64,000 bases of DNA, from the IMG/VR virus record IMGVR_UViG_3300018432_000002, positions 1 through 64,000 of that record, one strand, 5' to 3'. Each line of letters opens with the position of its first letter. Within the stretch, counting starts at the first letter, position 1. Origin of the DNA: a virus. This document shows, piece by piece, positions 101-46,721 of this stretch. The notes under the pieces were generated by a model. That model ran no database searches. It was not told where the DNA came from and saw only the letters and a list, made by a program, of their open reading frames with translations. The position numbers were made by a program, and so were the translations under genes.

Positions 101-1198
101 ATGGCGATCATCGGTTTGCAGCTGTCCCAGGCGGAATCGGGCCGGATCCGGCTCGGCATGAAGGTCGCGTCGGGCCGCGGTACCCGGCCGGCGAAACTCG
201 ACCGGTTCCGTTTCACCTCTCCCCGGAAGAACCTGATCGAGAAGATCGCCGAGCTGTACGGCGGGGCGGTCGAGGAGTGGCAGCCGCCGCGTGGTGCCGG
301 GCAGTGGCAGGTGATCACGAACGCCACGGACATTCCGGTGGTGGTGCCGCCGCAGGACCCGGCGGAGTCGCAGTGGCTTGAGCTGTGGTCGGCGGGTGGC
401 TGCCAGCGTCGCTGTGACGGGCAGACGGAGAAGATTTCCGGGCAGGCCTGCATGTGCGACCCGGACCCCGCGCGGCGGGACTGCAAGATGCACACCCGGC
501 TGCGAGTGATGCTCGAGGACGTTCCCGGTCTGGGGGCGTGGCGGGTCGACACCGGCTCCTACTACGCGGCGACCGAACTGCCGGGTATCGCGCAGCTCCT
601 CGCCCAGGCGCAGGGCGCCATCCCCGGCCGGCTGGTACTGGATCAGCGGACGGTGGTGCGGGACGGCAAGACCAAAAACTTCGTGGTGCCGGTCTTGGAC
701 TGCACTGAGCTCACCCCGAAGGAGTTAATGTCCGGCCGGGTGCAGGAGTTGATGGCGGCCCGCGCGCAGGTCGCGATCGACGGGCGGCTCCAGCAGGCGG
801 CGATCACCGCTGGTGCAACGAAGGACTATCCGTCGCTGATCGATGCGGCGAAGACCCGTGAGGCGCTGGTGGACCTGCACAAGCAGGCACAGCAGGACTT
901 CCAGGGTCAGGTCCCGGAGGCTCTGCTGGCGCTGTTCACCAGCCGTGCCGAGGCGATCAAGCAGCCCGAGCCGTCGCAGCCGGCCGCGTCACCTGTTCCC
1001 GTTCCGGCAACCTCGGACGACCCGATCGGGGAGCTGTGGACGCAGATCCTCGAGGAGTCGCCATGGGACAACGCGGAGCAGCTTGAGCAGCACTTCTGTG
1101 AGCTGGTCGGCCATTCGTCGGATGAGGCGTCGGAGCAGGACATGCGCAAGTTCCTGGACGCGATCCGGCAGGCCAAGACCGCGGGGGTGGCGGCATGA
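101..1198 (+). CDS. phage early-region protein, function unknown (globular N-domain with Cys cluster CQRRCDG..CMCD..C, Q/A/E-rich linker, acidic C-terminus)
   Basis: 365-aa ORF with a GGAG RBS upstream and an ATGA overlap with the next gene; composition is not low-complexity. Confidence 0.75.
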   Translation: MAIIGLQLSQAESGRIRLGMKVASGRGTRPAKLDRFRFTSPRKNLIEKIAELYGGAVEEWQPPRGAGQWQVITNATDIPVVVPPQDPAESQWLELWSAGGCQRRCDGQTEKISGQACMCDPDPARRDCKMHTRLRVMLEDVPGLGAWRVDTGSYYAATELPGIAQLLAQAQGAIPGRLVLDQRTVVRDGKTKNFVVPVLDCTELTPKELMSGRVQELMAARAQVAIDGRLQQAAITAGATKDYPSLIDAAKTREALVDLHKQAQQDFQGQVPEALLALFTSRAEAIKQPEPSQPAASPVPVPATSDDPIGELWTQILEESPWDNAEQLEQHFCELVGHSSDEASEQDMRKFLDAIRQAKTAGVAA

Positions 1199-4693: not shown

Positions 4694-4897
4694 ATGTCTC
4701 ACGTTCAAGTCGTGTTTGACGTGTCGTTGCGGTTCAACGTCCACGACCAGGGTGCTGCTGCCGACCTTGCGGCGAAGTTGGCCCGGATCGCGGTCGGGTT
4801 TGCGGGTGAGCCTGGCGTGTTGGGTTCGACGATCGACGTGGACACGTACGAGCAGGTGTGTCACCACGAGCACGAGCATGACGGGGTTGAGCCGTGA
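4694..4897 (+). CDS. hypothetical protein
   Basis: ATG 4694 preceded by GGAGGG RBS (4685-4690); within ORF 4646..4897. Confidence 0.55.
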   Translation: MSHVQVVFDVSLRFNVHDQGAAADLAAKLARIAVGFAGEPGVLGSTIDVDTYEQVCHHEHEHDGVEP

Positions 4898-5082
4898 CCG
4901 GCCGCTGCCCGATCGACCCCGACTGCGACCGGCATGTCTTCCCCGCGCCGCCGCCTGAGGCTCGGTTGCGGGAGTTCGTGGAGTTGGTGGCCCGCCTGGA
5001 CGAGCCGGGTGTGCCGCCGTTCGGCGACCGGGGCATCACCTCGCATGATCTGGCTGCCGCGGCGCGGGAGGTTCTCGGATGA
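4894..5082 (+). CDS. hypothetical protein
   Basis: GTGA/ATGA coupling, high GC3. Confidence 0.5.
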   Translation: MTGRCPIDPDCDRHVFPAPPPEARLREFVELVARLDEPGVPPFGDRGITSHDLAAAAREVLG

Positions 5083-5864
5083 GGACCTTCAACCTGTTGG
5101 CTGAACCGCGCCGGATCGCCTTCGCCGGCGACTGGCACATGAACGTCCGCTGGGCCGAGCGTGCGATCCGGTGCGCCGTAGACCAAGACGCTGACGTGAT
5201 CGTTCACGTCGGCGACTACGGCTACGACTTCCATCCCGGCTTCGTGCGCAAGGTTGAGGAGGCGCTGACCCGGGCCGGTATTCCGCTGCTGTTCGTCGAC
5301 GGCAACCACGAGGACTTCACCCTGCTGCTTCAGCAGCCGGTCGGCGGGGACGGTCTGCGCCGGATCAGCGGGCATGTGGCGCACTTGCCGCGCGGTTTCC
5401 GCTGGGAGTGGGCTGGCGTGCACTTCCTCGCCATGGGCGGTGCGCATTCGGTTGACCGGCCGTACCGGGTGCCTGGTGTGTCGTGGTGGCCGGAGGAGAC
5501 GATCACGGCCCGGCAGGTGTATGAGGCCGCGGAGCCCGGCACCACGGATGTTCTGATCTCGCACGACTGCCCGCACGGTGTTGTCATCCCCGGCATCGAC
5601 GACCGCACCAGCCCGCCACCGTTCTCGCCGGCCGAGATCGAACGGTCCAACGAGCATCGGAAGTTGCTGCGGGTGCTGGTGGAGCAGGTGCAGCCGTCGG
5701 TGATCTGGCACGGCCACTACCACGTCGGCTATCAGGCGGTCGCTGACCTCGGGTACGGCCCGGTTGTGGTGAACGGCCTGGACTGTGACGAGACGACGCT
5801 GGACGCGAACGTCCGGGTAGTTGATGTGGCTGACCTACTGGTACGCCCGGGAGGTGGGCTGTGA
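5079..5864 (+). CDS. calcineurin-like metallophosphoesterase
   Basis: Motifs GDWH, HVGDYG, DGNHED, GGAH, SHD, GHYH in canonical order. Confidence 0.85.
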   Translation: MRTFNLLAEPRRIAFAGDWHMNVRWAERAIRCAVDQDADVIVHVGDYGYDFHPGFVRKVEEALTRAGIPLLFVDGNHEDFTLLLQQPVGGDGLRRISGHVAHLPRGFRWEWAGVHFLAMGGAHSVDRPYRVPGVSWWPEETITARQVYEAAEPGTTDVLISHDCPHGVVIPGIDDRTSPPPFSPAEIERSNEHRKLLRVLVEQVQPSVIWHGHYHVGYQAVADLGYGPVVVNGLDCDETTLDANVRVVDVADLLVRPGGGL

Positions 5865-6151
5865 CCGCCCTCGGCCCAAACGACCTTCAGGCCTGCCCGT
5901 CGCTGGGCCGCCTGAAGTCGCACCGCGCCCATGGGATCACGTGCTTCGAGTGTGAGCCGGATTTGCGGCAGGACGTGCGCTGCCCGCTGTGCCTGGACAT
6001 GGTGCCCGCGGTCGGTGCGGTGATCGAGCCGCACGACGTTGAAGGGCGCGGGCGCGGGTTTCCGGGTTTCGAGTGCCCCGGTTCGGGTGCGGTCGTGGAG
6101 CTGCCGGTCCCGGTCGAGCAGCCGTTGCGCCTGTCGAGGGCCGCCGCATGA
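5861..6151 (+). CDS. hypothetical protein with CxxC..CxxC zinc-finger-like motif
   Basis: CFECEPDLRQDVRCPLCLD; coupled start and stop. Confidence 0.55.
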   Translation: MTALGPNDLQACPSLGRLKSHRAHGITCFECEPDLRQDVRCPLCLDMVPAVGAVIEPHDVEGRGRGFPGFECPGSGAVVELPVPVEQPLRLSRAAA

Positions 6152-6203
6152 TCGTCCGCACTCTCGATGAGATCCGCGCCGAGCGTCCACCGTTGGTGAT
6201 CCG

Positions 6204-6404
6204 GTGACCGCCCGCCAACTCGCCCAGGCATGGCATGACGAGCAGACCGTCGCGGATGCCGTGCATGCGGAGGCGTATTCGTCGTGCTGGTGTTGCTGTA
6301 CGGCCTGCGACCCAGATTGGGTTGAGGGTGGCGGCAACCCGCATTTCGTGGCCGCCTCGGCGGAGGATGTGTCCGGTCAGCCGGGTTCGGGGTCGGCCTC
6401 GTGA
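6204..6404 (+). CDS. hypothetical protein (Cys-rich: CWCCCTAC)
   Basis: GTG start overlapping the stop of a 19-codon micro-ORF (6148..6207); coupled to the next gene. Confidence 0.45.
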   Translation: MTARQLAQAWHDEQTVADAVHAEAYSSCWCCCTACDPDWVEGGGNPHFVAASAEDVSGQPGSGSAS

Positions 6405-6760
6405 GCCAGATTCCTTACGGCTGGGCCGCCGACGTGGACTTCGAGTGCTGCATCGTGTCGCCCACCAACGCGCATCGCATGCTGTGCGGCCGGTGGGTGG
6501 CGTACGCGCCGACGGTGCCGCCGCAGTTCCCGCACGCCGTGCACGACGAGTGCCGGCGCCTGTGGACGGAAGGCGGGCACAAGCCGGTTGAGGTGCTGGA
6601 TGTGTACGGCATCTGCCCGGACTGCGCAGGTGAGACGCCGCTAAAGGGCGGCCTGGTCGGGGCACATGCGGCGTGGCGGATGGGCAGGCATGGGCTGTAT
6701 CCGTCGGCGGAGGCGTGTACCGGTGAGGGCAAGGCACCGGAGCCGGAGGGCGAGCGGTGA
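6401..6760 (+). CDS. hypothetical Cys/His-rich protein
   Basis: 119-aa ORF, GTGA coupling, high GC3. Confidence 0.55.
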   Translation: MSQIPYGWAADVDFECCIVSPTNAHRMLCGRWVAYAPTVPPQFPHAVHDECRRLWTEGGHKPVEVLDVYGICPDCAGETPLKGGLVGAHAAWRMGRHGLYPSAEACTGEGKAPEPEGER

Positions 6761-6765
6761 GGCGG

Positions 6766-7047
6766 CTACTCGGCCGTGTCCCCGGCCTTCTCGACGAGCG
6801 AAGCGACGTACTCGCGTGTGTATCCGGCTCGGCGCCCGACTTCGGACTTCGACATGCCTGACCGTACGGCTGCCACGATCGCGGCGTGCAGCGCAGCCCG
6901 CTGCTTTTCGAGCTGGGCTTCGACGCGTTGGAAGGACTTCGCCGCTTCGTCGAGGGAGAGCGCCTCGGGGGTTTTGGTGAGGCGTGGAGTCCTGGGCATG
7001 GTCGGGATTGTCGCATGACGGTGATCGCGAAGCGAGGTAGCGGACAT
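6766..7047 (-). CDS. small HTH transcriptional regulator (the only reverse-strand gene in the early region)
   Basis: HTH-like MSKSEVGRRAGYTREYVASLV; GGAAGG RBS upstream of ATG 7047; convergent with the 6401..6760 gene and divergent from 7156. Confidence 0.65.
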   Translation of the reverse strand: MSATSLRDHRHATIPTMPRTPRLTKTPEALSLDEAAKSFQRVEAQLEKQRAALHAAIVAAVRSGMSKSEVGRRAGYTREYVASLVEKAGDTAE

Positions 7048-7068
7048 GGTTATCGGCCTTCCGGGGAC

Positions 7069-7097
7069 TTGATAGTGAGAACTGACTCCGCAATACT
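7069..7097 (+). promoter_or_regulatory. candidate sigma70-type promoter (TTGATA-17 nt-AATACT) for the operon starting at 7156
   Basis: Hexamers read directly in the A/T-richer 108-nt intergenic region. Confidence 0.3.
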
Positions 7098-7155
7098 AGT
7101 TCGCGTACCTAGCTGACGTGAAGAGACCGTCGGCACCTCTTCAAAGGAGTTCCAG

Positions 7156-7356
7156 ATGCCCAAGCACGCAGACGACGAGCTGGTCCTGTTCGGCTACAGC
7201 AGCGACTTCAATGTCGGCTTCGAGGATCGCCACGGCGATGACCGGGGGGTGACTTGGGGCGAGTGGCGTCAGATGAACTCGACCGAACGCGAACGGGTCA
7301 TGCAGGAGTACGTCAACGAGCTGGTTGAGGTCTTCGTCGTGGACGGAGAGAACTGA
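7156..7356 (+). CDS. hypothetical acidic protein
   Basis: AAAGGAG RBS upstream; TGATG coupling with the next gene. Confidence 0.6.
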   Translation: MPKHADDELVLFGYSSDFNVGFEDRHGDDRGVTWGEWRQMNSTERERVMQEYVNELVEVFVVDGEN

Positions 7357-8138
7357 TGAGCACCACCAGCAAGATCGAATGGACCGAGAAGACGTGGAAC
7401 CCCACCACCGGATGTGACCGCATCTCCCCCGGGTGCGACAACTGCTACGCCCTCACCCTCGCCAAGCGACTCAAGGGCATGGGCCAGGCCAAATACCAGA
7501 ACGACGGAGACCCGCGAACCTCCGGCCCTGGCTTCGGCCTGAGCGTCCACCCCGACTCCCTGAGCGAGCCGCTGCGCTGGCGCAAGCCCACCGTCGTGTT
7601 CGTCAACTCCATGTCCGACCTGTTCCACGCCCGAGTCCCCCGCGAGTTCATCGCGCAGGTCTGGGACGTCATGGCCCGAACGCCGCAGCACACCTACCAG
7701 GTGCTCACGAAACGGCCCGAGCGCTTGCCCCGAGTGCTCGCTGACCTGCCCGAGCTACCGAACGTGTGGCTCGGCACGTCGATCGAGTCCGACGATTTCA
7801 CCCGTCGCGCAGACTCCCTTCGTGCTGCGCCGGCCGCCGTCCGGTTCATCTCCGCCGAACCGCTGCTCGGCCCGCTCCCGTCGCTCGACCTGAGTGGGAT
7901 CGACTGGCTGATCCTCGGCGGCGAGTCCGGCCCCGGCTCCCGGCCGCTCGACCTGGGCTGGTTCCGCGAGCTAATCGCTATGGCCCGAGATTCGGGTACC
8001 GCCGTGTTCGTCAAGCAACTCGGCTCTGTCTGGGGGCGTGGCGCTGGCGCCGACAACAAGGGCGGCAACTGGTCCCTGTGGTCTGACTGGCTCCGAGTCC
8101 GGGAGTACCCGCGCATTGCCGAGGCGGTGGCCCGATGA
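7356..8138 (+). CDS. phage Gp37/Gp68 family protein (DUF5131)
   Basis: N-terminal IEWTEKTWNPTTGCDRISPGCDNCYA and FVNSMSDLFH / ISAEPLLGP / LILGGESG blocks are characteristic of this family. Confidence 0.85.
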   Translation: MSTTSKIEWTEKTWNPTTGCDRISPGCDNCYALTLAKRLKGMGQAKYQNDGDPRTSGPGFGLSVHPDSLSEPLRWRKPTVVFVNSMSDLFHARVPREFIAQVWDVMARTPQHTYQVLTKRPERLPRVLADLPELPNVWLGTSIESDDFTRRADSLRAAPAAVRFISAEPLLGPLPSLDLSGIDWLILGGESGPGSRPLDLGWFRELIAMARDSGTAVFVKQLGSVWGRGAGADNKGGNWSLWSDWLRVREYPRIAEAVAR

Positions 8139-8359
8139 CTCACTTCCACGCCTGCGACGCGACCTGCGCGATCCAGTCCGACGTCGTCGACAAGGCCGAG
8201 TTCGACGCCTGGGTGAACAACCTGCTGAAGCGCACCCCTGAGTCGTGGGACGGCGACGCGAGCGCCGAGTACATCGTCGGCGAATACCTGCACGAGCTTG
8301 AGCGACGCGTCCTTGCTTTCGGCGGCTCGCTTGAGAAGCACCCTGAGGACGCATCGTGA
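8135..8359 (+). CDS. hypothetical protein
   Basis: Coupled ATGA start, high GC3. Confidence 0.55.
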   Translation: MTHFHACDATCAIQSDVVDKAEFDAWVNNLLKRTPESWDGDASAEYIVGEYLHELERRVLAFGGSLEKHPEDAS

Positions 8360-8553
8360 CCGGTTGGGGCGAGCTGGAACGCGGTGACCTCGCTGCCGGG
8401 GTCACCCGCCACCCGCTGCGCAAAAGCATCGCCGTGACAGTCCGTCGTGGCACAACCGTCTACACCGCCGCGTACTGCCGCAACGAGGAAGAAGCTGACC
8501 GACTGTGGGCGGCCCTGGTCGAGCTGTCCGGCGCCGAACGGGAGGTGTCGTGA
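8356..8553 (+). CDS. hypothetical protein
   Basis: GTGA-coupled ORF. Confidence 0.5.
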   Translation: MTGWGELERGDLAAGVTRHPLRKSIAVTVRRGTTVYTAAYCRNEEEADRLWAALVELSGAEREVS

Positions 8554-8780
8554 CCGCCCCTGACGTCCGAACCACCCCTGACGGCCTGTGCAAGGGCGGT
8601 GAGTGGGTGTGGGCAGGTGACCGGAAACTCGGGCGGATCTTCCCCCGGATCGTGGCCGCCCCGTCCGGTGAGTGGTGGGGCAAACGGTTCGGGGTGGACG
8701 CCCACAAATGCGACAGCCGGCAGGAAGCACTCGACTTCGTGACCAGGACAGCCCGACTCGCATCCGGAGAGACGACATGA
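8550..8780 (+). CDS. hypothetical protein
   Basis: GTG 8550 overlaps the previous TGA; GGGAGG RBS; within ORF 8505..8780. Confidence 0.5.
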   Translation: MTAPDVRTTPDGLCKGGEWVWAGDRKLGRIFPRIVAAPSGEWWGKRFGVDAHKCDSRQEALDFVTRTARLASGETT

Positions 8781-21279: not shown

Positions 21280-22527
21280 CCGCATTGCCCTGTGGTCTGG
21301 GGCAGTCCGCTCGGGAAAACGATCGCCTCTCTGATCGCCTTCGTGCTTGCGGTCAGAGAGGCCCCCCACTCGGGCCTGATCATCATTGCGGGGAGAACCC
21401 TGCAGACGATCGAGCGAAACCTGCTTGACCCGCTTCAGGACCTCGCGCTGTTCGGCGCTGTCGCAGACACGGTCCAGCACACCCGAGGATCGAACGTTGC
21501 CGTCATCCTCGGCCGCACCGTGCACCTCATCGGCGCGAACGACTCGCGTAGCGAAGGCCGTCTTCGAGGACTCACTGCCTGCCTCGGCATGATTGACGAG
21601 GCCACGCTGGTACCGAAGGCCTTCTTCACGCAGTTCCTGGCCCGGCTCTCCGTTCCCGGTGCACGCCTACTCCTTACAACCAACCCTGATTCACCTGCGC
21701 ATTGGCTGCGCAAGGAATTCATCCAGCGGGCCGGCGAACTCGACCTTGCCCACTTCCACTTCACTCTCGACGACAACCCGTCCCTGGCCCCTGAGTACGT
21801 CGCCGCCATCAAGGCCGAGTTCACCGGCATGTGGTTCAAGCGAATGGTCCTTGGACTCTGGGTTTCCGCCGAGGGCGCCGTCTACGACATGTGGGATTCG
21901 GACCGCCACGTCATCGACATCATCCCGCCGATCTGGCGGTGGATCTGCGCCTCCGTCGACTATGGGACGTCAAATCCGCTGCATGCGCTCCTGCTCGGCA
22001 TCGACGCCTCCCAGACGATCTACGTGGCGTCGGAGTGGCGCCACAGTGCTCGGGATACCCGGCGTTCCCTGACGGACGCCGAATACTCGGCCGAACTGAA
22101 GAAGTGGCTCGCCGACTACCGGCAGCCCGGACTTCAGGCGACCGGAGTGACGCCCGAGGCGATCGTGGTGGACCCGTCCGCCGCATCGTTCATCGAGCAA
22201 CTGTGGCGCGACCGGATGACCCCCACGCCAGCCGACAACAGCGTGGCCGACGGCATCCGCCTCGTCTCCTCGGTGCTCGGCGCCGGGAAGTTGAAAGTCC
22301 ACCGCTCATGCAAGGCGCTCATCGATGAGTTCCCCGGCTACTCGTGGGACGACAAGAAGGCGCTGCGCGGCGTGGACGCGCCGATCAAGGTTGATGACCA
22401 CGGGCTGGACGCGCTGAGGTACGGCGTAAAGACCACCGAGAGTGCCTGGCGCCGACCGAACGGCTTCCAGATGCCACATACGCCCCGCCCGTTCGACGAG
22501 GTCGACCTTATGGGCGCCGCTATGTAG
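21212..22527 (+). CDS. terL: terminase large subunit. It reads intact only with a -1 shift at 21313-21319 (frame A 21212..21319, frame B 21319..22527)
   Basis: Frame A gives MNPAPTLALSPKQ...LWSGAVRSGK and frame B continues TIASLIAF...; together they form Walker A GAVRSGKT and a protein of about 438 aa. Confidence 0.8.
21313..21362 (+). promoter_or_regulatory. candidate -1 programmed ribosomal frameshift signal (G_GGA_AAA + 5-nt spacer + 10-bp stem-loop)
   Basis: The heptamer is in the correct 0-frame phase; GCCTCTCTGA (21325-21334) pairs with TCAGAGAGGC (21353-21362); 0-frame TGA at 21332-21334. Confidence 0.55.
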
Positions 22528-22545: not shown

Positions 22546-23979
22546 GTGACCGCACCGACCTCCGTCAAGGGCTATGTCGACCCGTATGCGCTGGGCAACA
22601 GTTGGGGTTCGCTGTACAGCGATCTGCTCGAGCATGTCCCAGACCTGACGTTCCCCATGTCCATTCCGGTGTATTCGCGGATGCGGCGTGACCCGAAACT
22701 GTCCTCGATCAATCAGGGCTGGACGCTCAACCTGCGGCGCTGCCAGTGGCAGCTAGATCCGGCCGGCTGCCGGCCCGAGGTCGTGGGCCTGGTCGCTGAC
22801 GGCATGGGCCTGGCGATCAAGGGTGCGGACAAGCCCGGCGCTGCCCGCCTGCGTGGTGTCTCCTGGGGTGACCATCTCGCTGCGGCGCTGCGGATGGTGC
22901 CGTTCGGCTTCGCCGCGTTCGAGATCGAAGCTGAGGCCGGCGACAAGGCTCAACTGTCCGGGCTGTGGGAGCGCCCGCAGTGGACGATCTCCCACCTGCA
23001 CGTCAACGGGAAGACCGGCCTGCTTGAAGGCGTCACCCAGGATCAGGCGGGCAAGCTTGAATCGCCGCAGATCCTGGCGAAGAACATGGCGTTCTACGTG
23101 CGGGAGCGCGAAGGCAGTAACTGGGCGGGTACAAGCCTGCTGCGAGCTTCATATGCTTCCTGGCTGATCAAGGAAGAGGTCCGGCGAGCCTACGGGGTCG
23201 CAAACGTCCGCTGGTCTGCCGGTGTGCCGGTAATGGAAGCACTGCCCGGGACCAACCCGACACCCGCCCAGATGGGTGAGGCTGCGCAGATGGCGCAGGC
23301 CTCCCGGGCGGGAATCGCCGCGGGTGCCGCATCGCCGCCAGGATTCACTCTGCGGATCAAAGGCATCGAGGGTGGCCTGCCGAACTCGCAGGAGTTTCTT
23401 CGCTACCTCGATCAGCAGATGACAGCGTCCACGCTGATGGGCGCATTCGACCTGGGTGATACCCCGAACGGGTCGCGGGCGCTCGGGCAAGTGTTCATGG
23501 ACTCGTTCCTGCTTGCCCTGGAGTCCGAGGCCGAACTGGTCGCCGACGTCGCTACCCGGCAGATCGCTGCCCGAATCGTGGACTGGAACTACGGCGAAGA
23601 CGAACCTGTCCCGCGTGTGGTGGCGTCCGGTGTCGGTTCTCGCCGTGAGGTGACCGCCGAGTCCCTGCAGCTGCTCCTGTCATCTGGGGCTCTCGCGGCC
23701 GACCCTCGCCTTGAGGCGTGGGTGCGCCGCGAATACCGGCTACCCGAACGTGACGGTATGGCTTTGCCGAAGGTGACCGCTCCGGGAGTTGAGCTCAAGC
23801 CCGACGAAGACGAGCCGGCCACCGACACGGACCCGGACGACCTGCCTGCTGATGTCGCAGCACGGCAGGCCGACCTGGACTGGGGCCTGTTCGGCGGGGC
23901 CAAAGCCGACCAGCCGGAACAGCCGTCACTGTTCGACGACGACGAAGCCGTTGATCTCGGGGCCTTCGCCCCGGCCTGA
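22546..23979 (+). CDS. portal protein
   Basis: 477 aa immediately after TerL; acidic C-terminus; the sequence pattern recalls Mu gp29/DUF935-type portals. Confidence 0.8.
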   Translation: MTAPTSVKGYVDPYALGNSWGSLYSDLLEHVPDLTFPMSIPVYSRMRRDPKLSSINQGWTLNLRRCQWQLDPAGCRPEVVGLVADGMGLAIKGADKPGAARLRGVSWGDHLAAALRMVPFGFAAFEIEAEAGDKAQLSGLWERPQWTISHLHVNGKTGLLEGVTQDQAGKLESPQILAKNMAFYVREREGSNWAGTSLLRASYASWLIKEEVRRAYGVANVRWSAGVPVMEALPGTNPTPAQMGEAAQMAQASRAGIAAGAASPPGFTLRIKGIEGGLPNSQEFLRYLDQQMTASTLMGAFDLGDTPNGSRALGQVFMDSFLLALESEAELVADVATRQIAARIVDWNYGEDEPVPRVVASGVGSRREVTAESLQLLLSSGALAADPRLEAWVRREYRLPERDGMALPKVTAPGVELKPDEDEPATDTDPDDLPADVAARQADLDWGLFGGAKADQPEQPSLFDDDEAVDLGAFAPA

Positions 23980-23994
23980 CCGTGCGGGGGTGCT

Positions 23995-26325
23995 GTGGCC
24001 GCCCGCAAGTTCGACCCGGCACGACACCCGAGGGACCGGTTCGGCCGCTTCACAAAATCCCGGACGGTCAAAGCGTCGGCGAAGGACAAGGCCGCGGCCC
24101 GGGAGGTTGCCGAAGGCTTCCAGCCGCAGGCGGTCGGCCGCCAGGAACGTGCCGCCTACCTGCAGCGGATTGCCGGCAGTCAGCCCACCGACGCGTTCGG
24201 GGATGTGCTCGAGGCGAACAAGGCGCTGCGTTCGGGTAAGGACTCGGACGCTGCCGAACGGCTCAAGGCCGCTGCGGTTGAACTTCCGGACGACATGCTG
24301 CTGTCCCGGGCGGTCCCCCTGTCGGTGTTTGGTCGCACTGACCCGCAGTCGCTGCAGGGCATGAAGGTCCGCGACGCAGGGTTCGCACCGGCGCAGCTCG
24401 GCACCGTCCGGCCCGTCGCCGACCACGTGCGCATGCACATGGCGGTTCCTGCGGGCACGCGTGCCGTGGTGAACCCGGAGACAGGCGAGATTGCCCTCGA
24501 CCACGACACCGAGATGGTCGTGGCGAAGGTCGCGGTAAACGATGCAGGCGGCGTCGACATGTGGCTGACTGTCCTGCCGAAGCAAAGCGTGCAGCGATCC
24601 GAGGACGACGGTGAGGGAGGCGACAAAACCAGCCCCACCGCAGACGGTGAGGCTGTCGAAGCGGACGACGCAGGACGCGCCGAGCTGATGAAGCTGAAGT
24701 TGCCTGAGCTGCGTGAACGGATGCGGGAACGTGGGCTGAAGCCGGGCCGTATGCGTAAATCCCAGATGGTCGACGCGCTCGTAGCTGACGAAACTGGCAA
24801 CGACGAGCCGGCAGGCGACACGCCCCCAGAACCCGAACCGCAGGCCGCACCGGATCCGGGGCCGGCCTCGGTCCCGGGCGACCAGACCGCAGCGCCGGCC
24901 ACGGATGCCCGATCGTTCGACGAACGAATCAAAGCCGCCGCCAAGGGCCGTAAAGCCCTCGACGCGATGCCGCTGTCGCTGCTACCCCGCAGCCGCGGCA
25001 ACCCGGACCTGACACCGGAACGCGCGAAGATCCTCCGGAGTCACCTGGTCGGTGAGACCGGGGATATCGACAGGGCACTCCAGAAGGGCGGCGACACCCC
25101 GAAGGCCACCGCCGACCGTGTCGCCGTTTTCGACGGCATCATGCAGGCATCGCCGCTCGGGCAGGACGCCGTCTACTACCGGGGCGCATCCACAACCCGC
25201 GGCATCTTCGGCGACGCAGCGACAGGGGATCTGACCGGCCACGAGTGGGTGGAGCACCGCTTCGCCGAGGTTTCCCCCTCTGACCAGACAGCACAAAACA
25301 TGGCCGGGGGGCGCGGAGCGGTCCTGCGGATCCTCGCCCCTCAGGGCACTGGTGCTGCCGCCATTTCCGGTGGCGCTTCCCAGGAAGTGCTGCTGGACCG
25401 CGGGCACACATGGCGGGTCGTCAAGGATTCGGGGCCCCGACAGAACGCGCCGCGCCTGATCGACGTGGAAATCGTCCCGAAGACCGGTGATGAACCAGCC
25501 CGGATCAAGCCGGTCGAAGTCGAGGTCACCACGGCCGACAATCCACTGTCGGCAGAGCAGGTGGCGGCACTGCCGGACACCCCGCTAGGCCGCAGTATCG
25601 CCTCTGGTGTCGCTTCGTCGAAGACCCTGTCGGGTGGCGCCGTCGGTGATGTGCGGCTGGTGACGTTCGGCGACGGCAGTAAAGCCATCCAAAAGATCGC
25701 CAAGGCCGACTTTGCCGGCTCGTCGCAAACCGACCTGACCGACGGTGAAGTTCTCGCAGGTCGGCTGGGGCGGGCAATCGGCGCCCCCGTGCCGGAGGTT
25801 GTTCACACCCGCCAGTACGAGATTTTCATGGAGTACGTGCCGGCCGCGAAACCCGGCATGGCCGTCCTGAACAGGTACACGGACCTGGTGGAGCGTGCCG
25901 GCAAGTGGGAAGAGTTCGTCGACTCCCGCGACGGACGGCTGCTCGGTGTCCTCGACCTGGTCACGGCGAACGCTGACCGGCATGCCGGTAACTGGCTGGT
26001 CCGTAAGGACGGCACGATCACCGGTATCGACCACGGCCTGGTGTGGTCGAAGCGGCTGACTGGTGCTCCGGATGTGCGCTCCTCCAACCCGGAGTTCGAC
26101 AGCCCGTTCGCCGGAAGGTTCTTCGGCGACAACTTCTCGGAGCGGCGCGGCTGGCAACCGAACGATCTGAGCCCGGCGGACGTTTTGTGGATGCGCCGGC
26201 AGGCCGAAGGGTTGCGGGAAGAGTTTGACCGGCGTGGGCGTGGCGACTGGCTGGACTTCACCCTGACCCGCATTGATCAGCTCGGCGAGTATGCGCGCGG
26301 AACGACGGACAGGGTGGCGACGTGA
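23995..26325 (+). CDS. multi-domain putative virion-associated effector: ART-like domain, SAP/Rho_N-like motif, second ART domain (R, SxS, E present), C-terminal PI3/PI4-kinase-like domain
   Basis: N-terminal HPRDRFGRF motif; ANKALRSG...LSRAV...GEIALD; LKLPELRERMRERGL; ILRSHL...VYYRGAS...VSPSD...SQEVLLDRG; KAIQK...DRHAGNWLV...GIDHG. Confidence 0.7.
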   Translation: MAARKFDPARHPRDRFGRFTKSRTVKASAKDKAAAREVAEGFQPQAVGRQERAAYLQRIAGSQPTDAFGDVLEANKALRSGKDSDAAERLKAAAVELPDDMLLSRAVPLSVFGRTDPQSLQGMKVRDAGFAPAQLGTVRPVADHVRMHMAVPAGTRAVVNPETGEIALDHDTEMVVAKVAVNDAGGVDMWLTVLPKQSVQRSEDDGEGGDKTSPTADGEAVEADDAGRAELMKLKLPELRERMRERGLKPGRMRKSQMVDALVADETGNDEPAGDTPPEPEPQAAPDPGPASVPGDQTAAPATDARSFDERIKAAAKGRKALDAMPLSLLPRSRGNPDLTPERAKILRSHLVGETGDIDRALQKGGDTPKATADRVAVFDGIMQASPLGQDAVYYRGASTTRGIFGDAATGDLTGHEWVEHRFAEVSPSDQTAQNMAGGRGAVLRILAPQGTGAAAISGGASQEVLLDRGHTWRVVKDSGPRQNAPRLIDVEIVPKTGDEPARIKPVEVEVTTADNPLSAEQVAALPDTPLGRSIASGVASSKTLSGGAVGDVRLVTFGDGSKAIQKIAKADFAGSSQTDLTDGEVLAGRLGRAIGAPVPEVVHTRQYEIFMEYVPAAKPGMAVLNRYTDLVERAGKWEEFVDSRDGRLLGVLDLVTANADRHAGNWLVRKDGTITGIDHGLVWSKRLTGAPDVRSSNPEFDSPFAGRFFGDNFSERRGWQPNDLSPADVLWMRRQAEGLREEFDRRGRGDWLDFTLTRIDQLGEYARGTTDRVAT

Positions 26326-27269
26326 ACGGCCGGTTCGAGCTGGTTGACGCCGAAACGGGCGATGTCCTGGACCTGGTGACGTTCACCGACGGTGAGGTTA
26401 CCTACGAGTCGGGGCTGGCCGAGTCGATTGTCGGCACCCGCCGCCGGCTCATCCCTGCCACCGGTGAGCTGCTGGCGTCGTTTGACGGCTGGTCCAACGG
26501 CTACCTGATCACCCGCCTTATTGGCGGTGAAGTTCAGGCAGCTGCGGGCGACACGGACGCCGAACGGATTCAGGCGCAGTGGGATGCGGCGAAAGCCCGT
26601 CTGCTGCGGCGCTGGCCGAAACTCGCGAAGCCGATGGTCGACGAACTCGCATCGCAAGCGGAAGGCCTGGTCGAGACGGGGGATCTGGCCCGGCTCGGTG
26701 AGCTGCAGGCCTCCGCCGGCGTGGTCGCCGCGGTTGCCGTGCCACTACGTCAGTCCGGCACGGACCTTGCAGCCGAGGCGGCTGCGGGCGTGGTGGAGGA
26801 AGCCGCCGTGCAAGACGTGTCGATCGCCGCCCCGGACGCGCCTGGTGTTGAGCGGGTGCGGCAGCACGCCGACGTGGTCGCCCGGATCATCGCGAACGGC
26901 TACGCCTCGGGTGCGGCACGAACGGCCCTGCAGCTGTCGGGCGCCGGGCCGCAGGAAGTCCGCGACGAGGTCGAACGGCACCTGACCGAACTCGGGCAGT
27001 CCACGAACGGTCTCGTCGGTACCGAGATCGGCGGGCTGCTGTCGGCGGCCCAGCACGCCGGACGGCTCGCGGTGCTCGAGCAAGAACCCGGTAACACCGT
27101 GCAGGCGATAGAGATCAACGACCTCAATCGGTGTGAACCCTGCAGCGAGGACTCGAACCGCGTCTTCCCTGATCTACGAGCCGCACTTCAGGTGTACGTC
27201 GTGGCCGGCAACCGGCATTGTCTCGGAAGATCGCGTTGTCGCGGGTACCTCCGCATGATCTGGCGCTGA
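26322..27269 (+). CDS. MuF-like head morphogenesis / minor capsid protein (tentative)
   Basis: Position after the portal; C-terminal D..NRCEPC....V....H.C....RCRG resembles the Mu F/SPP1 gp7 C-terminal motif. Confidence 0.55.
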   Translation: MNGRFELVDAETGDVLDLVTFTDGEVTYESGLAESIVGTRRRLIPATGELLASFDGWSNGYLITRLIGGEVQAAAGDTDAERIQAQWDAAKARLLRRWPKLAKPMVDELASQAEGLVETGDLARLGELQASAGVVAAVAVPLRQSGTDLAAEAAAGVVEEAAVQDVSIAAPDAPGVERVRQHADVVARIIANGYASGAARTALQLSGAGPQEVRDEVERHLTELGQSTNGLVGTEIGGLLSAAQHAGRLAVLEQEPGNTVQAIEINDLNRCEPCSEDSNRVFPDLRAALQVYVVAGNRHCLGRSRCRGYLRMIWR

Positions 27270-27609: not shown

Positions 27610-29364
27610 ATGCCTGACGTCGAACTCGCGCGCCGTGAAGGCGTAGAGCTTGTGAACTCCGGTTCGTGGCAGCTCCTCTCCGGCAGCTGGAACCCGAACA
27701 GCAAAGACATCGCCGACGCTGTTGAAGCGTCCAAATGCCCCGCCGTACGCCGTCCCCGACTCAAACTGGGACACCTGGACGAGCGGTTCAATCCCGCAGA
27801 CAATGCGGTCCTCGACGGCACACCGGCGCTCGGTTGGTTCGACAACCTGCGCGCCAGCGCCGACGGCAACACCCTTGTCGGGGATCAGGTGGCGCTGCCA
27901 TGGCTGTCAGCCGTCCAGCCTGCCGCATGGCCCGACCGGTCGATTGAGGGCAAGTATCAGTCGCAGTGCGCTTTGGGCCATACCCACCCGTTTGTGGTGA
28001 CGGCGGTGTCGCTGCTAGGTGAAACCCCGCCGGGCATCCCGACACTGAAGTCCATCAAGACTCTCGACGATCTGCCCGCCGCCCTTGGTGTGGCGGCCTC
28101 CGGCGAAGCGTCCGAGGGCGGCGAAAGCGTCCAGGCGATCATCCGTGCTTCCGTCGAGGTGCACACCGGCACGATGGTGGCGCTGATCCCCACCGCCGAG
28201 GATGCGGCACGGCTAGCGGTCGGCGGGGGCGAGCCGGCCGACGAGCTGCACTGCACCTTGGCCTACCTGGGTGACGCCGCAGCCCTGGGCGCCGGTGGCC
28301 GCCAGGATGTCCTCGACGGCGTGACCCGTGCGGCGAACGGCCTGCCCGAGATCGAGGCGGACGCTTTCAGCCTGAACGTTTTCAACCCCGGAACGGCCAG
28401 CGACCGGGACACGTGCATTGTGCTCGGCCTGTCCGGCGATCCGATCGACGCCGTTCACGATCTGGTGTCGGAGGCGCTGCGGGAAGCCCTGTGGGATCGG
28501 CTGCTGGAACTGCCGCCCCCGCACCGCCCTTGGCACGCGCACATGACCTTGGAGTACACCGAGGACCTGGCGCGTCTGACCGCCCTCACCGACCGGATCG
28601 GCCCGGTCCGGTTCGACCGGATCCGGATCGCGTTCGGCGGTGAACGCATCGACATTCCGCTGATCCCGCCCAGCGAGGACGAGACGGTGGCCGCGTCGGC
28701 TGCCATCCGGGACCGCATCGCACCGATCCGCGAGCGACTGGCCCGGCTCGAAACCGTCGCCGCTGCGGCAAGCCCCACCTCTGATCTCCCGGCCGCCGAG
28801 CCGGAGCAAGAAATCAACCCCGAACCGATTGAGGAGGACTTTGTGTCCACCGAACTGAGCGGTCTCCGCTCACGGCTCGGCCTGCCCGACGACGCCGACC
28901 TTGCCGCCATTGAGGCGAAGGTCGACGCGATCAAGGCGGACGCCGAGAAGACCCCCGAGCCGACCCCCGAGATGGTCGCTGCTTCCGCCGCCGCCGTCGA
29001 GCAGGCCACCAAGGCTGAGGCGGAGAAGGACGAGCTCCGCAAGGAAGTCCAGGTCCTTGCCTCGCAGATGCAGCAGGTCACCACGGAGCTGTCCGCGGCG
29101 AAGGCAGCCCAGGCTGCCACCGTCAAGGCCAGCGTGTTCGACGCTGCGATCAAGGACGGCAAGCTGAAGCCCGCCGACCGCGAGCAGTGGGAGAAGGACT
29201 ACGACGAGGCGCCGGGCGCGATCACCCGCGTCCTGGCGTCCATCGCTGTCGGCACCGCCGTTCCGGTGATGGCGTCCGGCACCGTCGGTGACCCGGAGCC
29301 GCAAGGCTCCGACGACGACTGGGACGCCATCGTTTCCCGCCTCGACAGCCCGAAGGCGGTCTGA
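27610..29364 (+). CDS. Mu gpI-like protease/scaffolding protein with an embedded 2H phosphoesterase (LigT-like) domain
   Basis: N-domain LGH...ALGWFDNL...DGNTL...SIEG...AVSLLGETPPGIP; two HxT motifs, HCTLAY (nt 28249) and HMTLEY (nt 28540); C-terminal coiled coil ...AAIKDGKLKPADREQWEKDY. Confidence 0.7.
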   Translation: MPDVELARREGVELVNSGSWQLLSGSWNPNSKDIADAVEASKCPAVRRPRLKLGHLDERFNPADNAVLDGTPALGWFDNLRASADGNTLVGDQVALPWLSAVQPAAWPDRSIEGKYQSQCALGHTHPFVVTAVSLLGETPPGIPTLKSIKTLDDLPAALGVAASGEASEGGESVQAIIRASVEVHTGTMVALIPTAEDAARLAVGGGEPADELHCTLAYLGDAAALGAGGRQDVLDGVTRAANGLPEIEADAFSLNVFNPGTASDRDTCIVLGLSGDPIDAVHDLVSEALREALWDRLLELPPPHRPWHAHMTLEYTEDLARLTALTDRIGPVRFDRIRIAFGGERIDIPLIPPSEDETVAASAAIRDRIAPIRERLARLETVAAAASPTSDLPAAEPEQEINPEPIEEDFVSTELSGLRSRLGLPDDADLAAIEAKVDAIKADAEKTPEPTPEMVAASAAAVEQATKAEAEKDELRKEVQVLASQMQQVTTELSAAKAAQAATVKASVFDAAIKDGKLKPADREQWEKDYDEAPGAITRVLASIAVGTAVPVMASGTVGDPEPQGSDDDWDAIVSRLDSPKAV

Positions 29365-29816: not shown

Positions 29817-29834
29817 CTTTTCGTCATGCCCGGA
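29817..29834 (+). repeat. intergenic motif copy 1 (hairpin + CTTTTCGTCATGCCCGGA) upstream of the major capsid gene
   Basis: Shares the exact 16-mer TTTCGTCATGCCCGGA with copy 3. Confidence 0.7.
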
Positions 29835-29861
29835 TACCGGGCGCAAGAAAGGACTACCACC

Positions 29862-30797
29862 GTGCCCGGTGCCTACCCCCCAAGCGGCCCGTCGCTGACG
29901 GGTGACCTGCTCTCCGTCCACCGCCTCCTGCAGAACCCCACCTACCTGCAGCGCCGGCTGCGCGGCATCCCGGACCTGCGGTTCATCGCCGACCGTGTCC
30001 TGACGCAGCGGCTGCGGACCTCCGGCGGTGCGGTGGCGTACGAGATCGGTGAGCCGATCGTGAACGCCCGCCCGATCCGGGCGGTGTCGCCGGGTGCCGA
30101 GTACCCGCGTGACAGCCCGGCCGACGGCACTGCCGCCCTGGCGAAGGTGTCGAAGTGGGGCGAGGCGGTCCCGCTGACCGACGAGAAGCTGAAGCGGTCG
30201 GTGTACATGGGTGACGAGGTGAACCGCACCCTGCGCAAGGCGGCGAACACCATCATCAGCAAGGTCGACAAGCTGACCACGACCGCCGCGGCTTCGGCGA
30301 TCACGGCGACGTCGGCTGCGGCGCAGACGTGGGACAACGCGTCGGCGCTGCTGTTCCGTGACGTGGAGAAGGCCGCGGCGAAGATCGTCGACGCGAACCA
30401 GGGCTACCGCCCCAACACGATCATGATGTCGACGACGAAGTACGCGATGCTCGTCACCGACCCGGCGATCGCCGCCCTCCGCAAGCGGGAGGACTCGACG
30501 AACCCGATCTACGGCGGGTCGATCGAGTCTCTCGGCAAGTACAACATCGTGGCGACGGCGCTGGCGAACCTGCCCTCCGACGACGTGTGGATCTTCGACG
30601 ACAACGAGCTCGGCGGCATGGCCGACGAGAACGAGGTCGACCCGGGCTACGCGACGATGGACAACAACCTGCAGTTCAAGGTCATCCGGAAGGAGTCCCG
30701 CGATGCGTGGGACATCCAGTGCCGGCGGATCACCGTCCCGGTCGTGCTGGAGCCGGCCGCCGGTGTGAAGATCACCGGTACTGGGGCGCTGGGCTGA
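29862..30797 (+). CDS. major capsid protein (HK97-fold type)
   Basis: Position, size, and AAGAAAGGA RBS before GTG 29862 (the ORF-track ATG 29826 lies inside a repeated intergenic motif). Confidence 0.8.
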   Translation: MPGAYPPSGPSLTGDLLSVHRLLQNPTYLQRRLRGIPDLRFIADRVLTQRLRTSGGAVAYEIGEPIVNARPIRAVSPGAEYPRDSPADGTAALAKVSKWGEAVPLTDEKLKRSVYMGDEVNRTLRKAANTIISKVDKLTTTAAASAITATSAAAQTWDNASALLFRDVEKAAAKIVDANQGYRPNTIMMSTTKYAMLVTDPAIAALRKREDSTNPIYGGSIESLGKYNIVATALANLPSDDVWIFDDNELGGMADENEVDPGYATMDNNLQFKVIRKESRDAWDIQCRRITVPVVLEPAAGVKITGTGALG

Positions 30798-44909: not shown

Positions 44910-46721
44910 ATGGCGCGTTCTTCATACGGCGGCGGCGCCGACGATGTGATCGTCTCCGAAGTCACCATCTCCGGCCAGCAAGTCGCCGGACTCCCCGCAG
45001 CACAAACCTTCCAAGTCTGGAACCTCGCGAACACCGTCCAGCTCACCGGCATTGTCGACGGCGTCGGTTCGGCCCTCCCGTCGAACCTGGTCACCTCCAC
45101 CACGCTCGGGCAGATCCCCGTCTTCCAAGGCCCCGACGGGTTCATCGGCTCCCTACGCCTGAAACACGTCGGCACGGGCGTGTCCTGGATTCTCGACCCC
45201 CACGACAACGGCATCAGCGCCTCCGGCATGGTCAACGTCCGGGCGTTCGGTGCCCGCGGTGACGGCACCACCGACGACGCGGCAGCGATCAACGCCGCCA
45301 TCACCTACGCGGCAGCGTTGGGCGCATCCGGGACCGGCTCGGCAGGCCAGAGCCTGACCGGCGGGACCGTGTTCTTCCCGGCCGGCGTGTACCTGCACTC
45401 GCAGACCATCGCCCTGAAGTCGCAGGTCCGGCTGATGGGCGCGTCCCGCGAAGCCGTCACACTGCGCCGCACCGCCAACGTCGTGTCGTTGGGTATCTAC
45501 GGCACCGGCTCGGCTGATGTGAACCGCAACTGGTACGCGTCGGTGGAGCACCTGACGATCGACGGCGACGGCGAAACCGCGACCGGCGTCGACATGGTGT
45601 ACGCCTCCCAGGTCGTGTTCAACTCGGTGTTCATCTTCAACGTGTCCGGCATTGGCATGGACCTCGTCGAAGTCTGGGACTCCCAGTTCTACAGCCTGTG
45701 GATGCAGTACTGCTCCGGTATCGGCGTCACCGAACAACCAGCCCTGTACGTCCGCTCCAAGCGGGCCAGTTCCGGGTTCGGCTCATCGGTCGACAGCTCG
45801 AATGAAATCGTCTTCACGGGCTTGCACATCGAGCATTTCCGGGCGGGCGCGGTCCGGATCGGGCCGGGTTTCGCGGGGTACAGCAACGGCCCGAACGGCA
45901 TCTACATCCAGAAGCTGAAGACCGAGTCGCCGTTCATCTCCTTCGGCGAACCCGTCGTGATGATCGAAGCGAACACGGAACGGATCCACCTTGAACGGCA
46001 TTACGCGTTCTGCGCGGACCTGTCCGACGGCGGGCCGGTCACGGTCATCCAGAACAACAGCTTGGGCATGACGAGCCTGCGGGACATTTTCGTCGCCAAC
46101 GCCGGCGTGGACACCATCTCGACGGCGGTCACCCTGTCCTGCGATGACGGGTATCCGATCGTCGACGGGGTGTACGGCAACTACGGCACCGCCCCGTCGA
46201 CTGCGCATGTGCAGGTCGATTCCCTGTTCGCGGGCTCGATCACGAACCTGCGCACCAACCTGGGCACGCTGATCGCCAACCATGAGCAGGCGTCACACTC
46301 CCGCGGTAAAGCGCTGACGTCGGACTTGACGACCACGTCGACGACGACGGCGAACATCACCGGTCTAACGTTCAACGACGTCCCACCGGGCACCTACCGG
46401 GTGTCCTTGGAGGGCCTGTTCCAGTCGTCGTCGACCACGAACGGACCGCGGTTCGGGGTGGGCGGTAGCGCGACGACCACGGTCAACTCGGGTTTCGTGA
46501 CCATGTGGACGTCCCCGACCGCATCCACCACCACGGCGATGACCGCCTGGAACACGGCGGTGGGTACAAGCCCGGCTGCGACCGCGACCAGCTACCGCGT
46601 TGACCTTGTATTCGTCATGACGGTCACCGCGATCGGCACGGCCGGGATCCGCTGGAACGTCAACGCGTCGGCCACCGGCACCCTGAAAGCCGGGGCGGTC
46701 GCCACCCTCACCCGCCTCTAA
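44910..46721 (+). CDS. tailspike / depolymerase with pectate-lyase-like right-handed beta-helix
   Basis: VNVRAFGARGDGTTDDAAAINAAI...GGTVFFPAGVY signature of the Pectate_lyase_3-type domain; GGGAGG RBS. Confidence 0.75.
   Translation: MARSSYGGGADDVIVSEVTISGQQVAGLPAAQTFQVWNLANTVQLTGIVDGVGSALPSNLVTSTTLGQIPVFQGPDGFIGSLRLKHVGTGVSWILDPHDNGISASGMVNVRAFGARGDGTTDDAAAINAAITYAAALGASGTGSAGQSLTGGTVFFPAGVYLHSQTIALKSQVRLMGASREAVTLRRTANVVSLGIYGTGSADVNRNWYASVEHLTIDGDGETATGVDMVYASQVVFNSVFIFNVSGIGMDLVEVWDSQFYSLWMQYCSGIGVTEQPALYVRSKRASSGFGSSVDSSNEIVFTGLHIEHFRAGAVRIGPGFAGYSNGPNGIYIQKLKTESPFISFGEPVVMIEANTERIHLERHYAFCADLSDGGPVTVIQNNSLGMTSLRDIFVANAGVDTISTAVTLSCDDGYPIVDGVYGNYGTAPSTAHVQVDSLFAGSITNLRTNLGTLIANHEQASHSRGKALTSDLTTTSTTTANITGLTFNDVPPGTYRVSLEGLFQSSSTTNGPRFGVGGSATTTVNSGFVTMWTSPTASTTTAMTAWNTAVGTSPAATATSYRVDLVFVMTVTAIGTAGIRWNVNASATGTLKAGAVATLTRL

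Follow-up and report, generated by a model that had tools for sequence, protein, structure and literature searches.

The locus described here raises the question of why a phage should keep, among its head genes, a protein assembled from toxin-like and kinase-like parts. It lies in a 64,000-nucleotide stretch of DNA (positions 1 to 64,000 of the IMG/VR virus record IMGVR_UViG_3300018432_000002; hereafter, the window) that has a G+C content of 66.8%, is phage DNA by its gene content and comes from an actinobacterial phage. The gene under study (23995..26325, + strand, as are all of the window features given below) starts with GTG, ends with TGA at 26323-26325 and encodes a protein of 776 amino acids, in which an ADP-ribosyltransferase (ART)-like domain, a SAP-like domain, a second ART domain and a kinase-like domain follow one another. 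Based on these domains, on their homologues and on the place of the gene, we favor the view, to which we assign a probability of about 0.6, that the protein is a polyvalent effector with the build of a polymorphic toxin, packaged in the virion and co-ejected with the DNA. What we infer in this view is that the protein is packaged and ejected, that it is enzymatically active and what kind of molecule it targets.

The gene itself is well defined. As the initial annotation had it, the open reading frame (ORF) is situated between the portal gene and the next head gene, directly after the Portal_Mu gene and separated from its end by a gap of 15 nucleotides. A run of G resembling a ribosome-binding site (23986-23990) is located 4 nucleotides ahead of the GTG start, and the TGA stop shares four nucleotides (GTGA) with the GTG start (26322) of the following gene, an overlap suggesting that the 776-residue protein is translationally coupled with the 315-residue product of that gene. 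In a database of 5.8 billion proteins we identified 55 homologues, one of which (P0001) is identical and is encoded on a 112,563-bp JGI metagenome contig. Since an identical protein and 54 further homologues exist, the gene is not an artefact. In each of the five loci that we examined (window, L001, L002, L008 and L009), the gene also keeps its place within the portal-to-protease block. The large terminase subunit, the portal and the ART-family gene, in this order, are followed by head genes, which in L002 are those for the protease, the cement protein and the capsid; the L001 contig ends earlier. In the window, L001, L002 and L009, the ART-family gene is followed by an unannotated gene for about 285-320 residues. 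L008, a Phytohabitans prophage, agrees in gene order and has, a few genes further downstream, a gene that weakly resembles Phage_Mu_F.

Profile and structure searches of each segment bore out all of the domain calls made initially (ART-like, SAP-like, ART and kinase). Judging by its sequence motifs, the C-terminal domain (residues 530-776; 25582..26322) is the best-preserved catalytic unit of the protein and probably its main effector. It is an atypical kinase of the phosphatidylinositol 3-/4-kinase (PI3/PI4-kinase) type, an assignment proposed at the outset and now supported by a match to the PF00454 (PI3_PI4_kinase) profile above the gathering cut-off (E = 1.1e-7; 32.4 bits against 27.1). 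All of the expected catalytic residues are in place, that is, Lys567, Glu585, the Asp661-Arg662-His-x-x-Asn666 loop and Asp679-His-Gly. When a profile made of the window kinase domain and eight stand-alone relatives was compared with PDB, the matches were limited to PI3/PI4 kinases, the best being a type II PI4 kinase (E = 3.6e-4). The AlphaFold2 (AF2) model of the domain has a mean predicted local distance difference test score (pLDDT) of 78 and a predicted template modelling score of 0.81. Foldseek relates it to RIO1/RIO2, PI3K gamma, VPS34, a macrolide phosphotransferase and the UbiB-like Rv3197, all of them protein-kinase-like and all matched with a probability of at least 0.95. The TM-scores against PDB are modest (0.3-0.44), and solved structures share 11-16% sequence identity with the domain.

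Neither the accessory helical domains nor the lipid-binding domains of lipid kinases are present in this kinase of about 250 residues. By analogy with HipA, RIO and T7 gp0.7, its substrate is most likely to be a protein rather than a lipid. The PI3/PI4-kinase family itself also includes protein kinases. A lipid would be a possible target, given that Actinobacteria, among few bacteria, make phosphatidylinositol. It is also possible that the domain carries out one of the other nucleotide-transfer chemistries for which kinase-fold enzymes are known.

The second ART domain (ART2; residues 305-500; 24907..25494) is a divergent domain of the VIP2/C3 type. The family profile matches VIP2 at E = 4e-18 and also Certhrax, C3larvin, CDTa, iota Ia, C3 and ExoS/T. 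As many as 49 of the 55 homologues pass the Pfam ADPrib_exo_Tox profile (PF03496; best E = 1.4e-35), and the window copy scores below its threshold (E = 0.17; 11.6 bits against a cut-off of 23.4). The AF2 model of residues 1-520 has a mean pLDDT of 85.5, with each ART domain above 90, and Foldseek matches ART2 to CDTa, VIP2, Ia, Certhrax and C3 with a probability of 1.0, as expected of an ART fold. In other words, fold and family are as had been claimed, but the accompanying statement that ART2 has all three hallmark elements is only partly correct. Arg396 and Glu464 are present, the Ser-Thr-Ser motif is represented by Ser427-Pro-Ser429, and in Ser462-Gln-Glu464 a serine replaces the first Glu/Gln. 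The N-terminal helix motif Y-x-x-x-Y-x-x-I-N-x-x-L-R is likewise eroded in the window copy. Loss of the first Glu of Glu-x-Glu implies that the target specificity or the activity of ART2 has changed; the lost residue is the one that sets specificity for Arg or Asn in this class of ARTs. Most ART2 domains of the family are fully canonical (Arg, Ser-Thr-Ser and Glu-x-Glu). In the nearest kinase-bearing relatives, the motifs read Ala-Thr-Ala and Asp-Ala-Glu (P0003) or Ser-Ala-Glu (P0004), so that ART2 is decaying in the closest relatives that carry a kinase. In P0006, even the catalytic Arg and Glu have been replaced, by Gln and Asp, respectively.

The first ART-fold domain (ART1; residues 46-200; 24130..24594) is non-canonical. 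Comparison of the ART1 and ART2 regions cut from the 55-sequence alignment gave an hhalign probability of 98.5% (E = 3.9e-15 over 132 columns), and ART1 is therefore a genuine paralogue of ART2. The equivalent region of P0047 exceeds the PF03496 threshold by itself (E = 8.3e-6), and the modelled domain has a pLDDT of about 90-97. ART1 had been described as degenerate. This holds for the Ser-Thr-Ser position, which is Pro-Ala-Gln in the window copy, commonly Pro-Thr-Gln or Pro-Thr-Ser in relatives and still Ser-Thr-Ser in two members; the Glu-x-Glu position reads Thr-Gly-Glu165. The term may nevertheless understate the domain, as the catalytic-equivalent Arg105 and Glu165 are invariant across 38 aligned sequences, suggesting that the NAD+ site of ART1 is still under selection. 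The best PDB matches to the model of residues 1-520 are the two-domain toxins CDTa, VIP2, Ia, BECa and C2-I (E about 1e-12; 520-550 columns). These alignments span both ART domains, with ART1 aligned to the N-domain of the binary-toxin A components.

The two ART domains are separated by a SAP/Rho_N-type helix-extended-helix domain (residues 223-268; 24661..24798) with disordered linkers on either side. The helix pair noted initially is weak in the window copy, which stays below threshold (Pfam SAP, E = 0.048; Rho_N, E = 0.2), but it is supported at the level of the family, where it recurs in several members (above threshold for Rho_N in P0045, E = 4.3e-7; SAP in P0024, E = 4e-4). Its helices (residues 223-232, 236-245 and 255-267) are modelled with a pLDDT of 93-96, and with a mean identity of 69% it is the most conserved segment of the protein.

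Ahead of ART1, the N-terminal segment (residues 1-45; 23995..24129) contains the motif HPRDRFGRF at residues 11-19 (24025..24051). The motif was pointed out in the initial annotation and proved to be nearly invariant, as 53 of the 55 homologues carry it. In a broader set of 203 collected proteins, LHPRxxxGRF/W (LHPRDxxGRF/W) or the variant PHQRRGPDGRW is present in 109. Such motifs usually stand at the N-terminus, including that of giant proteins encoded after the portal, or just ahead of a kinase domain; GodonK gp67 (L005), for example, opens with LHPRGADGRW (residues 27-38). A signal for head incorporation or processing is a possible role. The idea that the motif marks several head proteins of the same phage was rejected, because a search for further in-frame copies across the window returned the single one at 24025..24051. 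We found no description of the LHPRDxxGRF/W motif.

All 55 homologues were recovered through the common N-terminal region, made up of the motif, ART1 and the SAP domain. What follows this module is variable and may be one to three further ARTs, a kinase (in 7 of the 55) or unannotated domains of about 200-280 residues. Identity to the window protein also differs from domain to domain. It is 73% for ART1, 49% for ART2 and 63% for the kinase in P0002, and 40%, 61% and 62%, respectively, in P0004, a mosaic that points to exchange of cassettes within the family. Across the family, the N-terminal module is constant, and the ARTs and the kinase that follow it are exchanged as cassettes. The combination of ARTs with a kinase, initially thought unfamiliar, is not unique to the window, as it occurs in those seven members and also in P0068 and P0071. 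Named hosts of the family are Micromonosporaceae (Paractinoplanes, Phytohabitans and Actinoplanes), in which the genes are prophage genes. L009 has two tandem ART genes after the portal (5543..8617), coding for 424 and 538 residues, with a 56-residue ORF between them.

The kinase, in turn, belongs to a family that reaches far beyond these homologues. When 1.84 billion cluster representatives were searched with a profile of the kinase, 3,501 of them matched at E ≤ 1e-3 (553 at E ≤ 1e-30), so that the family has at least 3,501 representatives. Many of the proteins are giant (1,000-6,274 residues), and some have several copies of the kinase. The proteins are very divergent, yet the six catalytic residues are kept in 92-95% of 202 domains taken from the best 150 representatives, which argues for selection for catalysis and against pseudokinases. 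Weak matches to HipA_2 and ABC1 are found among the relatives. Named members come mainly from Actinobacteria and their phages.

It is worth pointing out what these kinases are attached to. In the Micromonospora phage pMLP1 (L003; CP058906.1), a 647-residue protein (4705..6648) fuses Phage_min_cap2 (E = 1.7e-75), the 'MuF2' of Jamet et al. (PMC5576092), to the kinase. Its gene is downstream of a terminase gene and of an unannotated 536-residue ORF in the portal position; the deposited pMLP1 record carries no annotation. P0071 unites Phage_Mu_F (MuF1), two kinases, SAP and two ARTs in one protein, and in P0068 an ART is flanked by kinases. P0072 is a giant WXG100_2 protein (type VII secretion) with the kinase near its C-terminus. 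Stand-alone copies are located in other actinophage head modules. Among 50,697 deposited phage genomes, the kinase domain alone was matched in pMLP1 and in Microbacterium phage Pumpernickel, whose gp82 (2,235 residues) ends in a kinase of the same family. In the same genomes, no match was found either by megablast with 10 kb of the window or by tblastn with the ART module and the 315-residue neighbor. Viral proteins matched in a structure comparison with the kinase model include one from a phage that has a similar kinase-like fold and bears the annotation of an HK97-type portal, GodonK gp67 of a Gordonia phage (1,479 residues), encoded directly after the portal, and a 1,340-residue protein of Mycobacterium phage Onyinye annotated as an 'ADP-ribosyltransferase'. 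These viral matches represent similarity of fold only (TM-scores of 0.40-0.48).

Given these observations, it is tempting to speculate, although we would give it somewhat less than even odds, that the C-terminal kinases form a large undescribed effector family shuttled among MuF1, MuF2, possibly portal-fusion and ART-SAP carriers as well as WXG100 toxins, with LHPRxxxGRF/W as the signal for incorporation into heads. A bolder version is that the injected kinase might phosphorylate inositol lipids of the host instead of proteins. Our literature searches for PI3/PI4-kinase-like cargo of phage heads, or for this kinase family, found no description.

How might the 776-residue protein work? According to the view we favor, the constant N-terminal module (motif, ART-fold domain and DNA-binding SAP/Rho_N domain) would be a carrier that takes the protein into the procapsid, close to the portal. 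Docking in the procapsid or on the portal would fall to the motif and the ART-derived domain, and SAP/Rho_N would tie the protein to the packaged DNA, so that it could leave with the genome at infection. In the host, at an early stage of infection, cellular molecules would be modified covalently by ART2, which would use NAD+, and by the kinase, which would use ATP. In binary-toxin A components, the N-terminal ART copy is a non-catalytic adaptor that docks onto an oligomeric translocation pore. A tandem ART docking on the portal ring would resemble such an A component on its pore, by analogy only. Packaging has indirect support from the conserved place next to the portal, from kinases of this family that are fused to the virion proteins MuF1 and MuF2 and from the similar kinase fold of the portal-annotated phage protein. 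The proposed early action on the host may be likened to that of T4 Alt and T7 gp0.7 (PMC5512222).

The downstream gene (26322..27269), which encodes the conserved 315-residue partner, had been called MuF-like. The label did not survive closer inspection and was dropped. The window protein has no match in Pfam, PHROGs, NCBIfam or the PDB profile search, and none of its 71 homologues has a Pfam domain. Of 25 homologues, one has a Phage_Mu_F match (E = 0.023), and 12 match phrog_595, 'head maturation protease' (best E = 2.8e-5); phrog_241 was matched at E = 0.072. Comparison by hhalign with three MuF-bearing (MuF1/MuF2) sequences was negative. The 71 homologues are encoded on the same contigs as the ART-family gene, which this family (about 280-320 residues) always accompanies, whatever the effector variant. 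Identity among 25 aligned members is 46-75%. A C-terminal four-cysteine motif, RCxPC...CLGRxRCRG, contributes the invariant Cys271, Cys274, Cys300 and Cys306. The possibility that the N-terminal module of the 776-residue protein is a cryptic MuF domain was rejected as well, since hhalign against MuF1/MuF2 sequences gave a probability below 1% and there was no MuF match in Pfam, PHROGs or NCBIfam.

Several points weigh against the packaged effector. Neither in the 776-residue protein nor in its 315-residue neighbor is a MuF domain detectable by profile searches or hhalign, so that the role of the N-terminal module as carrier rests only on its constancy and position. With Arg and Glu kept invariantly, ART1 may be an enzyme instead of an adaptor. 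Conversely, ART2 may be inactive, given its sub-threshold Pfam score and the missing Glu-x-Glu. The kinase model matches its fold relatives with low TM-scores (0.3-0.48), which are silent on the substrate. Finally, no immunity or antidote gene turned up, although no search was aimed at one.

If the protein is not packaged, it could be a cytoplasmic enzyme, expressed late along with the head proteins and acting during assembly on host or phage proteins (of defence, of translation or of the head itself), for instance by ADP-ribosylation or phosphorylation, without ever reaching the next cell. The absence of any detectable MuF or capsid-targeting domain would fit this explanation, as would the fact that location in a late operon guarantees late expression only, and it has been suggested that ARTs encoded beside packaging genes might counter immune processes directed at the portal or terminase (Iyer et al. 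2022, PMC9503650). Nonetheless, MuF1 and MuF2, which are virion components, occur fused to kinases of the same family, a similar kinase fold occurs in the portal-annotated phage protein, the invariant N-terminal module and its motif behave as a trafficking domain, and the SAP domain suggests association with DNA. We consider a purely cytoplasmic role unlikely.

Packaging could also serve competition between bacteria. Virions released by lysogens would then deliver a prophage-borne polymorphic toxin that arrests non-immune neighbors, while lysogens would be protected by an immunity function, a role proposed for MuF toxins by Jamet et al. (PMC5576092). This would be in line with the relatives being prophage genes of Paractinoplanes, Phytohabitans and Actinoplanes, with the Gp3-like recombination directionality factor in the window, which suggests a temperate lifestyle, with the same kinase near the C-terminus of the WXG100 giant protein and with the exchange of effector cassettes among relatives. 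However, no immunity gene has been identified (again, no search was aimed at one), and the gene directly downstream is an improbable candidate, because it is found with every effector variant, unlike a cognate immunity gene. Moreover, one to few packaged ART or kinase molecules are likelier to modulate a cell than to kill it (PMC5576092). On balance, competition between lysogens and their neighbors seems to us an improbable main function.

We regard it as quite improbable that the protein is merely a structural component of head assembly, with the ART and kinase domains as pseudoenzymes that provide scaffolding or portal-plug mass and the tandem ART as an adaptor. The absence of Ser-Thr-Ser in ART1, the absence of Glu-x-Glu in a sub-threshold ART2, the loss of both Arg and Glu from ART2 of P0006 and the alignment of the tandem ART over both domains with CDTa, VIP2 and Ia, in which the N-domain is non-catalytic, could be read in this way, but the kinase Lys, Glu, Asp, Asn and Asp are kept in 92-95% of the 202 domains, most ART2 domains of the family are fully canonical and variable C-terminal cassettes would be atypical of a structural protein. 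A secreted binary-toxin A component was set aside because of the phage head context.

The surrounding genes complete the picture of a head module. The gene under study is preceded by those for the large terminase subunit (21292..22527; Terminase_6N, E = 1.2e-8) and the Mu-type portal protein (22546..23979; Portal_Mu, PF06074, E = 3.1e-38; phrog_113, E = 1e-44). The portal-to-protease block is closed by the head protease/scaffold gene (27610..29364; Mu-like_Pro, PF10123, E = 8.7e-10), and the major capsid protein gene follows at 29826..30797 (NCBIfam capsid_Caudo_1, E = 9.7e-23). The protease/scaffold protein has an N-terminal region resembling 2H phosphoesterases (PF13563, E = 8.1e-6, 26.4 bits against a cut-off of 27; TIGR02258, E = 0.0076), and the same fusion is found in L002 (14208..16181). 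This region may represent a second head-delivered enzyme; such enzymes of the 2H type have been proposed to degrade cyclic or 2'-5' nucleotide immune signals (Iyer et al.).

Elsewhere in the window, the gene at 101..1198 encodes the Gp3-like recombination directionality factor (PF18897, E = 5e-46), suggestive, as a sequence match, of a temperate phage using a large serine integrase. Further genes code for a DUF5131 protein (7356..8138; E = 2e-84), a pectate-lyase-like protein, probably acting as tail fibre or depolymerase (44910..46721; E = 1e-20), and a protein with an Rv2179c-like 3'-5' exoribonuclease domain (50934..51494; E = 2e-11). Proteins identical to those of two window genes are encoded on contigs of 112,563 bp (JGI) and 112,470 bp (Logan) from different sources, and contigs carrying relatives measure 107,742, 111,657 and 117,460 bp. 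The source may therefore be a phage genome that is complete at about 112.5 kb.

The prospect of a packaged effector matters for several reasons. Very few enzymes known or predicted to be injected by phages have been characterized, and almost none in Actinobacteria. A carrier that is not MuF and consists of an ART-derived domain, SAP and a short motif may represent a distinct route by which heads are loaded with cargo. The kinase cargo family, with its at least 3,501 representatives, is common to phage heads and type VII secretion toxins and is unmentioned in the key surveys consulted. The family also displays turnover of cassettes, with ART domains decaying where a kinase has been added. Cultured phages offer entry points, namely pMLP1 with its MuF2-kinase fusion, GodonK gp67 and Onyinye.

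How does the 776-residue protein compare with known systems? T4 Alt has a single ART with a canonical catalytic site and reaches the head by means of an N-terminal targeting signal that a protease removes. Like the window protein, it is an ART of the Arg-Ser-Glu type, and it is packaged in the head, injected and modifies host RNA polymerase and other proteins (PMC5512222, PMC9503650), but it has no kinase, SAP or tandem ART. More generally, T4 Alt and the MuF and polyvalent effectors are predicted or known to be packaged in heads (PMC5512222, PMC5576092, PMC9503650).

Binary-toxin A components (VIP2, CDTa, iota Ia, C2-I and BECa) are the best structural matches and likewise have a non-canonical N-terminal ART copy. 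In the window protein, however, disordered linkers and SAP part the two ARTs, the N-domain keeps its Arg and Glu, and the genomic context is a phage head module, not an operon for a secreted toxin. The kinase shares the Asp-Arg-His-x-x-Asn loop, Asp-His-Gly, the Lys/Glu pair and the protein-kinase-like fold with PI4K II, PI3K/VPS34, RIO1/RIO2, HipA and UbiB/ABC1. As for phage kinases, the functional precedent is T7 gp0.7, an early gene product and not head cargo. It is able to reprogramme host transcription and translation factors (PMC5512222).

MuF toxins resemble the window protein in having their gene right after the portal and a constant N-terminal part joined to variable C-terminal toxins, including VIP2-type ARTs (PMC5576092, PMC7302621). 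They, too, belong to temperate phages or prophages, and their delivery with the DNA has been predicted. Examples are the MuF-VIP2 fusions of actinophages, such as Microbacterium phage Percival gp4 (PMC7302621), and the Enterococcus faecalis EFV toxin, a MuF1-ART protein among the MuF toxins of temperate phages (PMC5576092). The differences are that the N-terminal part in the window consists of an ART fold and SAP, with no match to PF04233 or PF06152, that the window protein carries a kinase, a word absent from the main text of PMC5576092, and that no adjacent immunity gene is evident at the window locus (no search having been aimed at one).

Polyvalent proteins (PMC5512222, PMC9503650) share several effector domains (ART, kinase and Rho-N/SAP), late virion genes, ART as a hub and a predicted early action. 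By its architecture, the window protein fits this class, as it unites two ARTs, SAP and a kinase in one polypeptide encoded between the portal and the head protease, and with 776 residues it is small for it. Its kinase was rejected as a member of the polyvalent-protein kinase family of Iyer et al. 2017. That family, of the Ser/Thr/Tyr type and without the C-terminal subdomain, occurs for the most part in elements of Verrucomicrobia/Chlamydia and Bacteroidetes, whereas the window kinase is PI3/PI4-kinase-like, has C-terminal helices and comes from Actinobacteria; polyvalent proteins also carry a zeta-toxin kinase.

Taken together, head-associated ART effectors beside the portal, MuF toxins and polyvalent proteins are already known (PMC5576092, PMC5512222, PMC9503650). 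What differs in the window protein is the ART-derived carrier with SAP in place of MuF, the tandem ART resembling that of binary toxins and the PI3/PI4-kinase-like cargo. The finding thus extends an established theme and does not overturn it.

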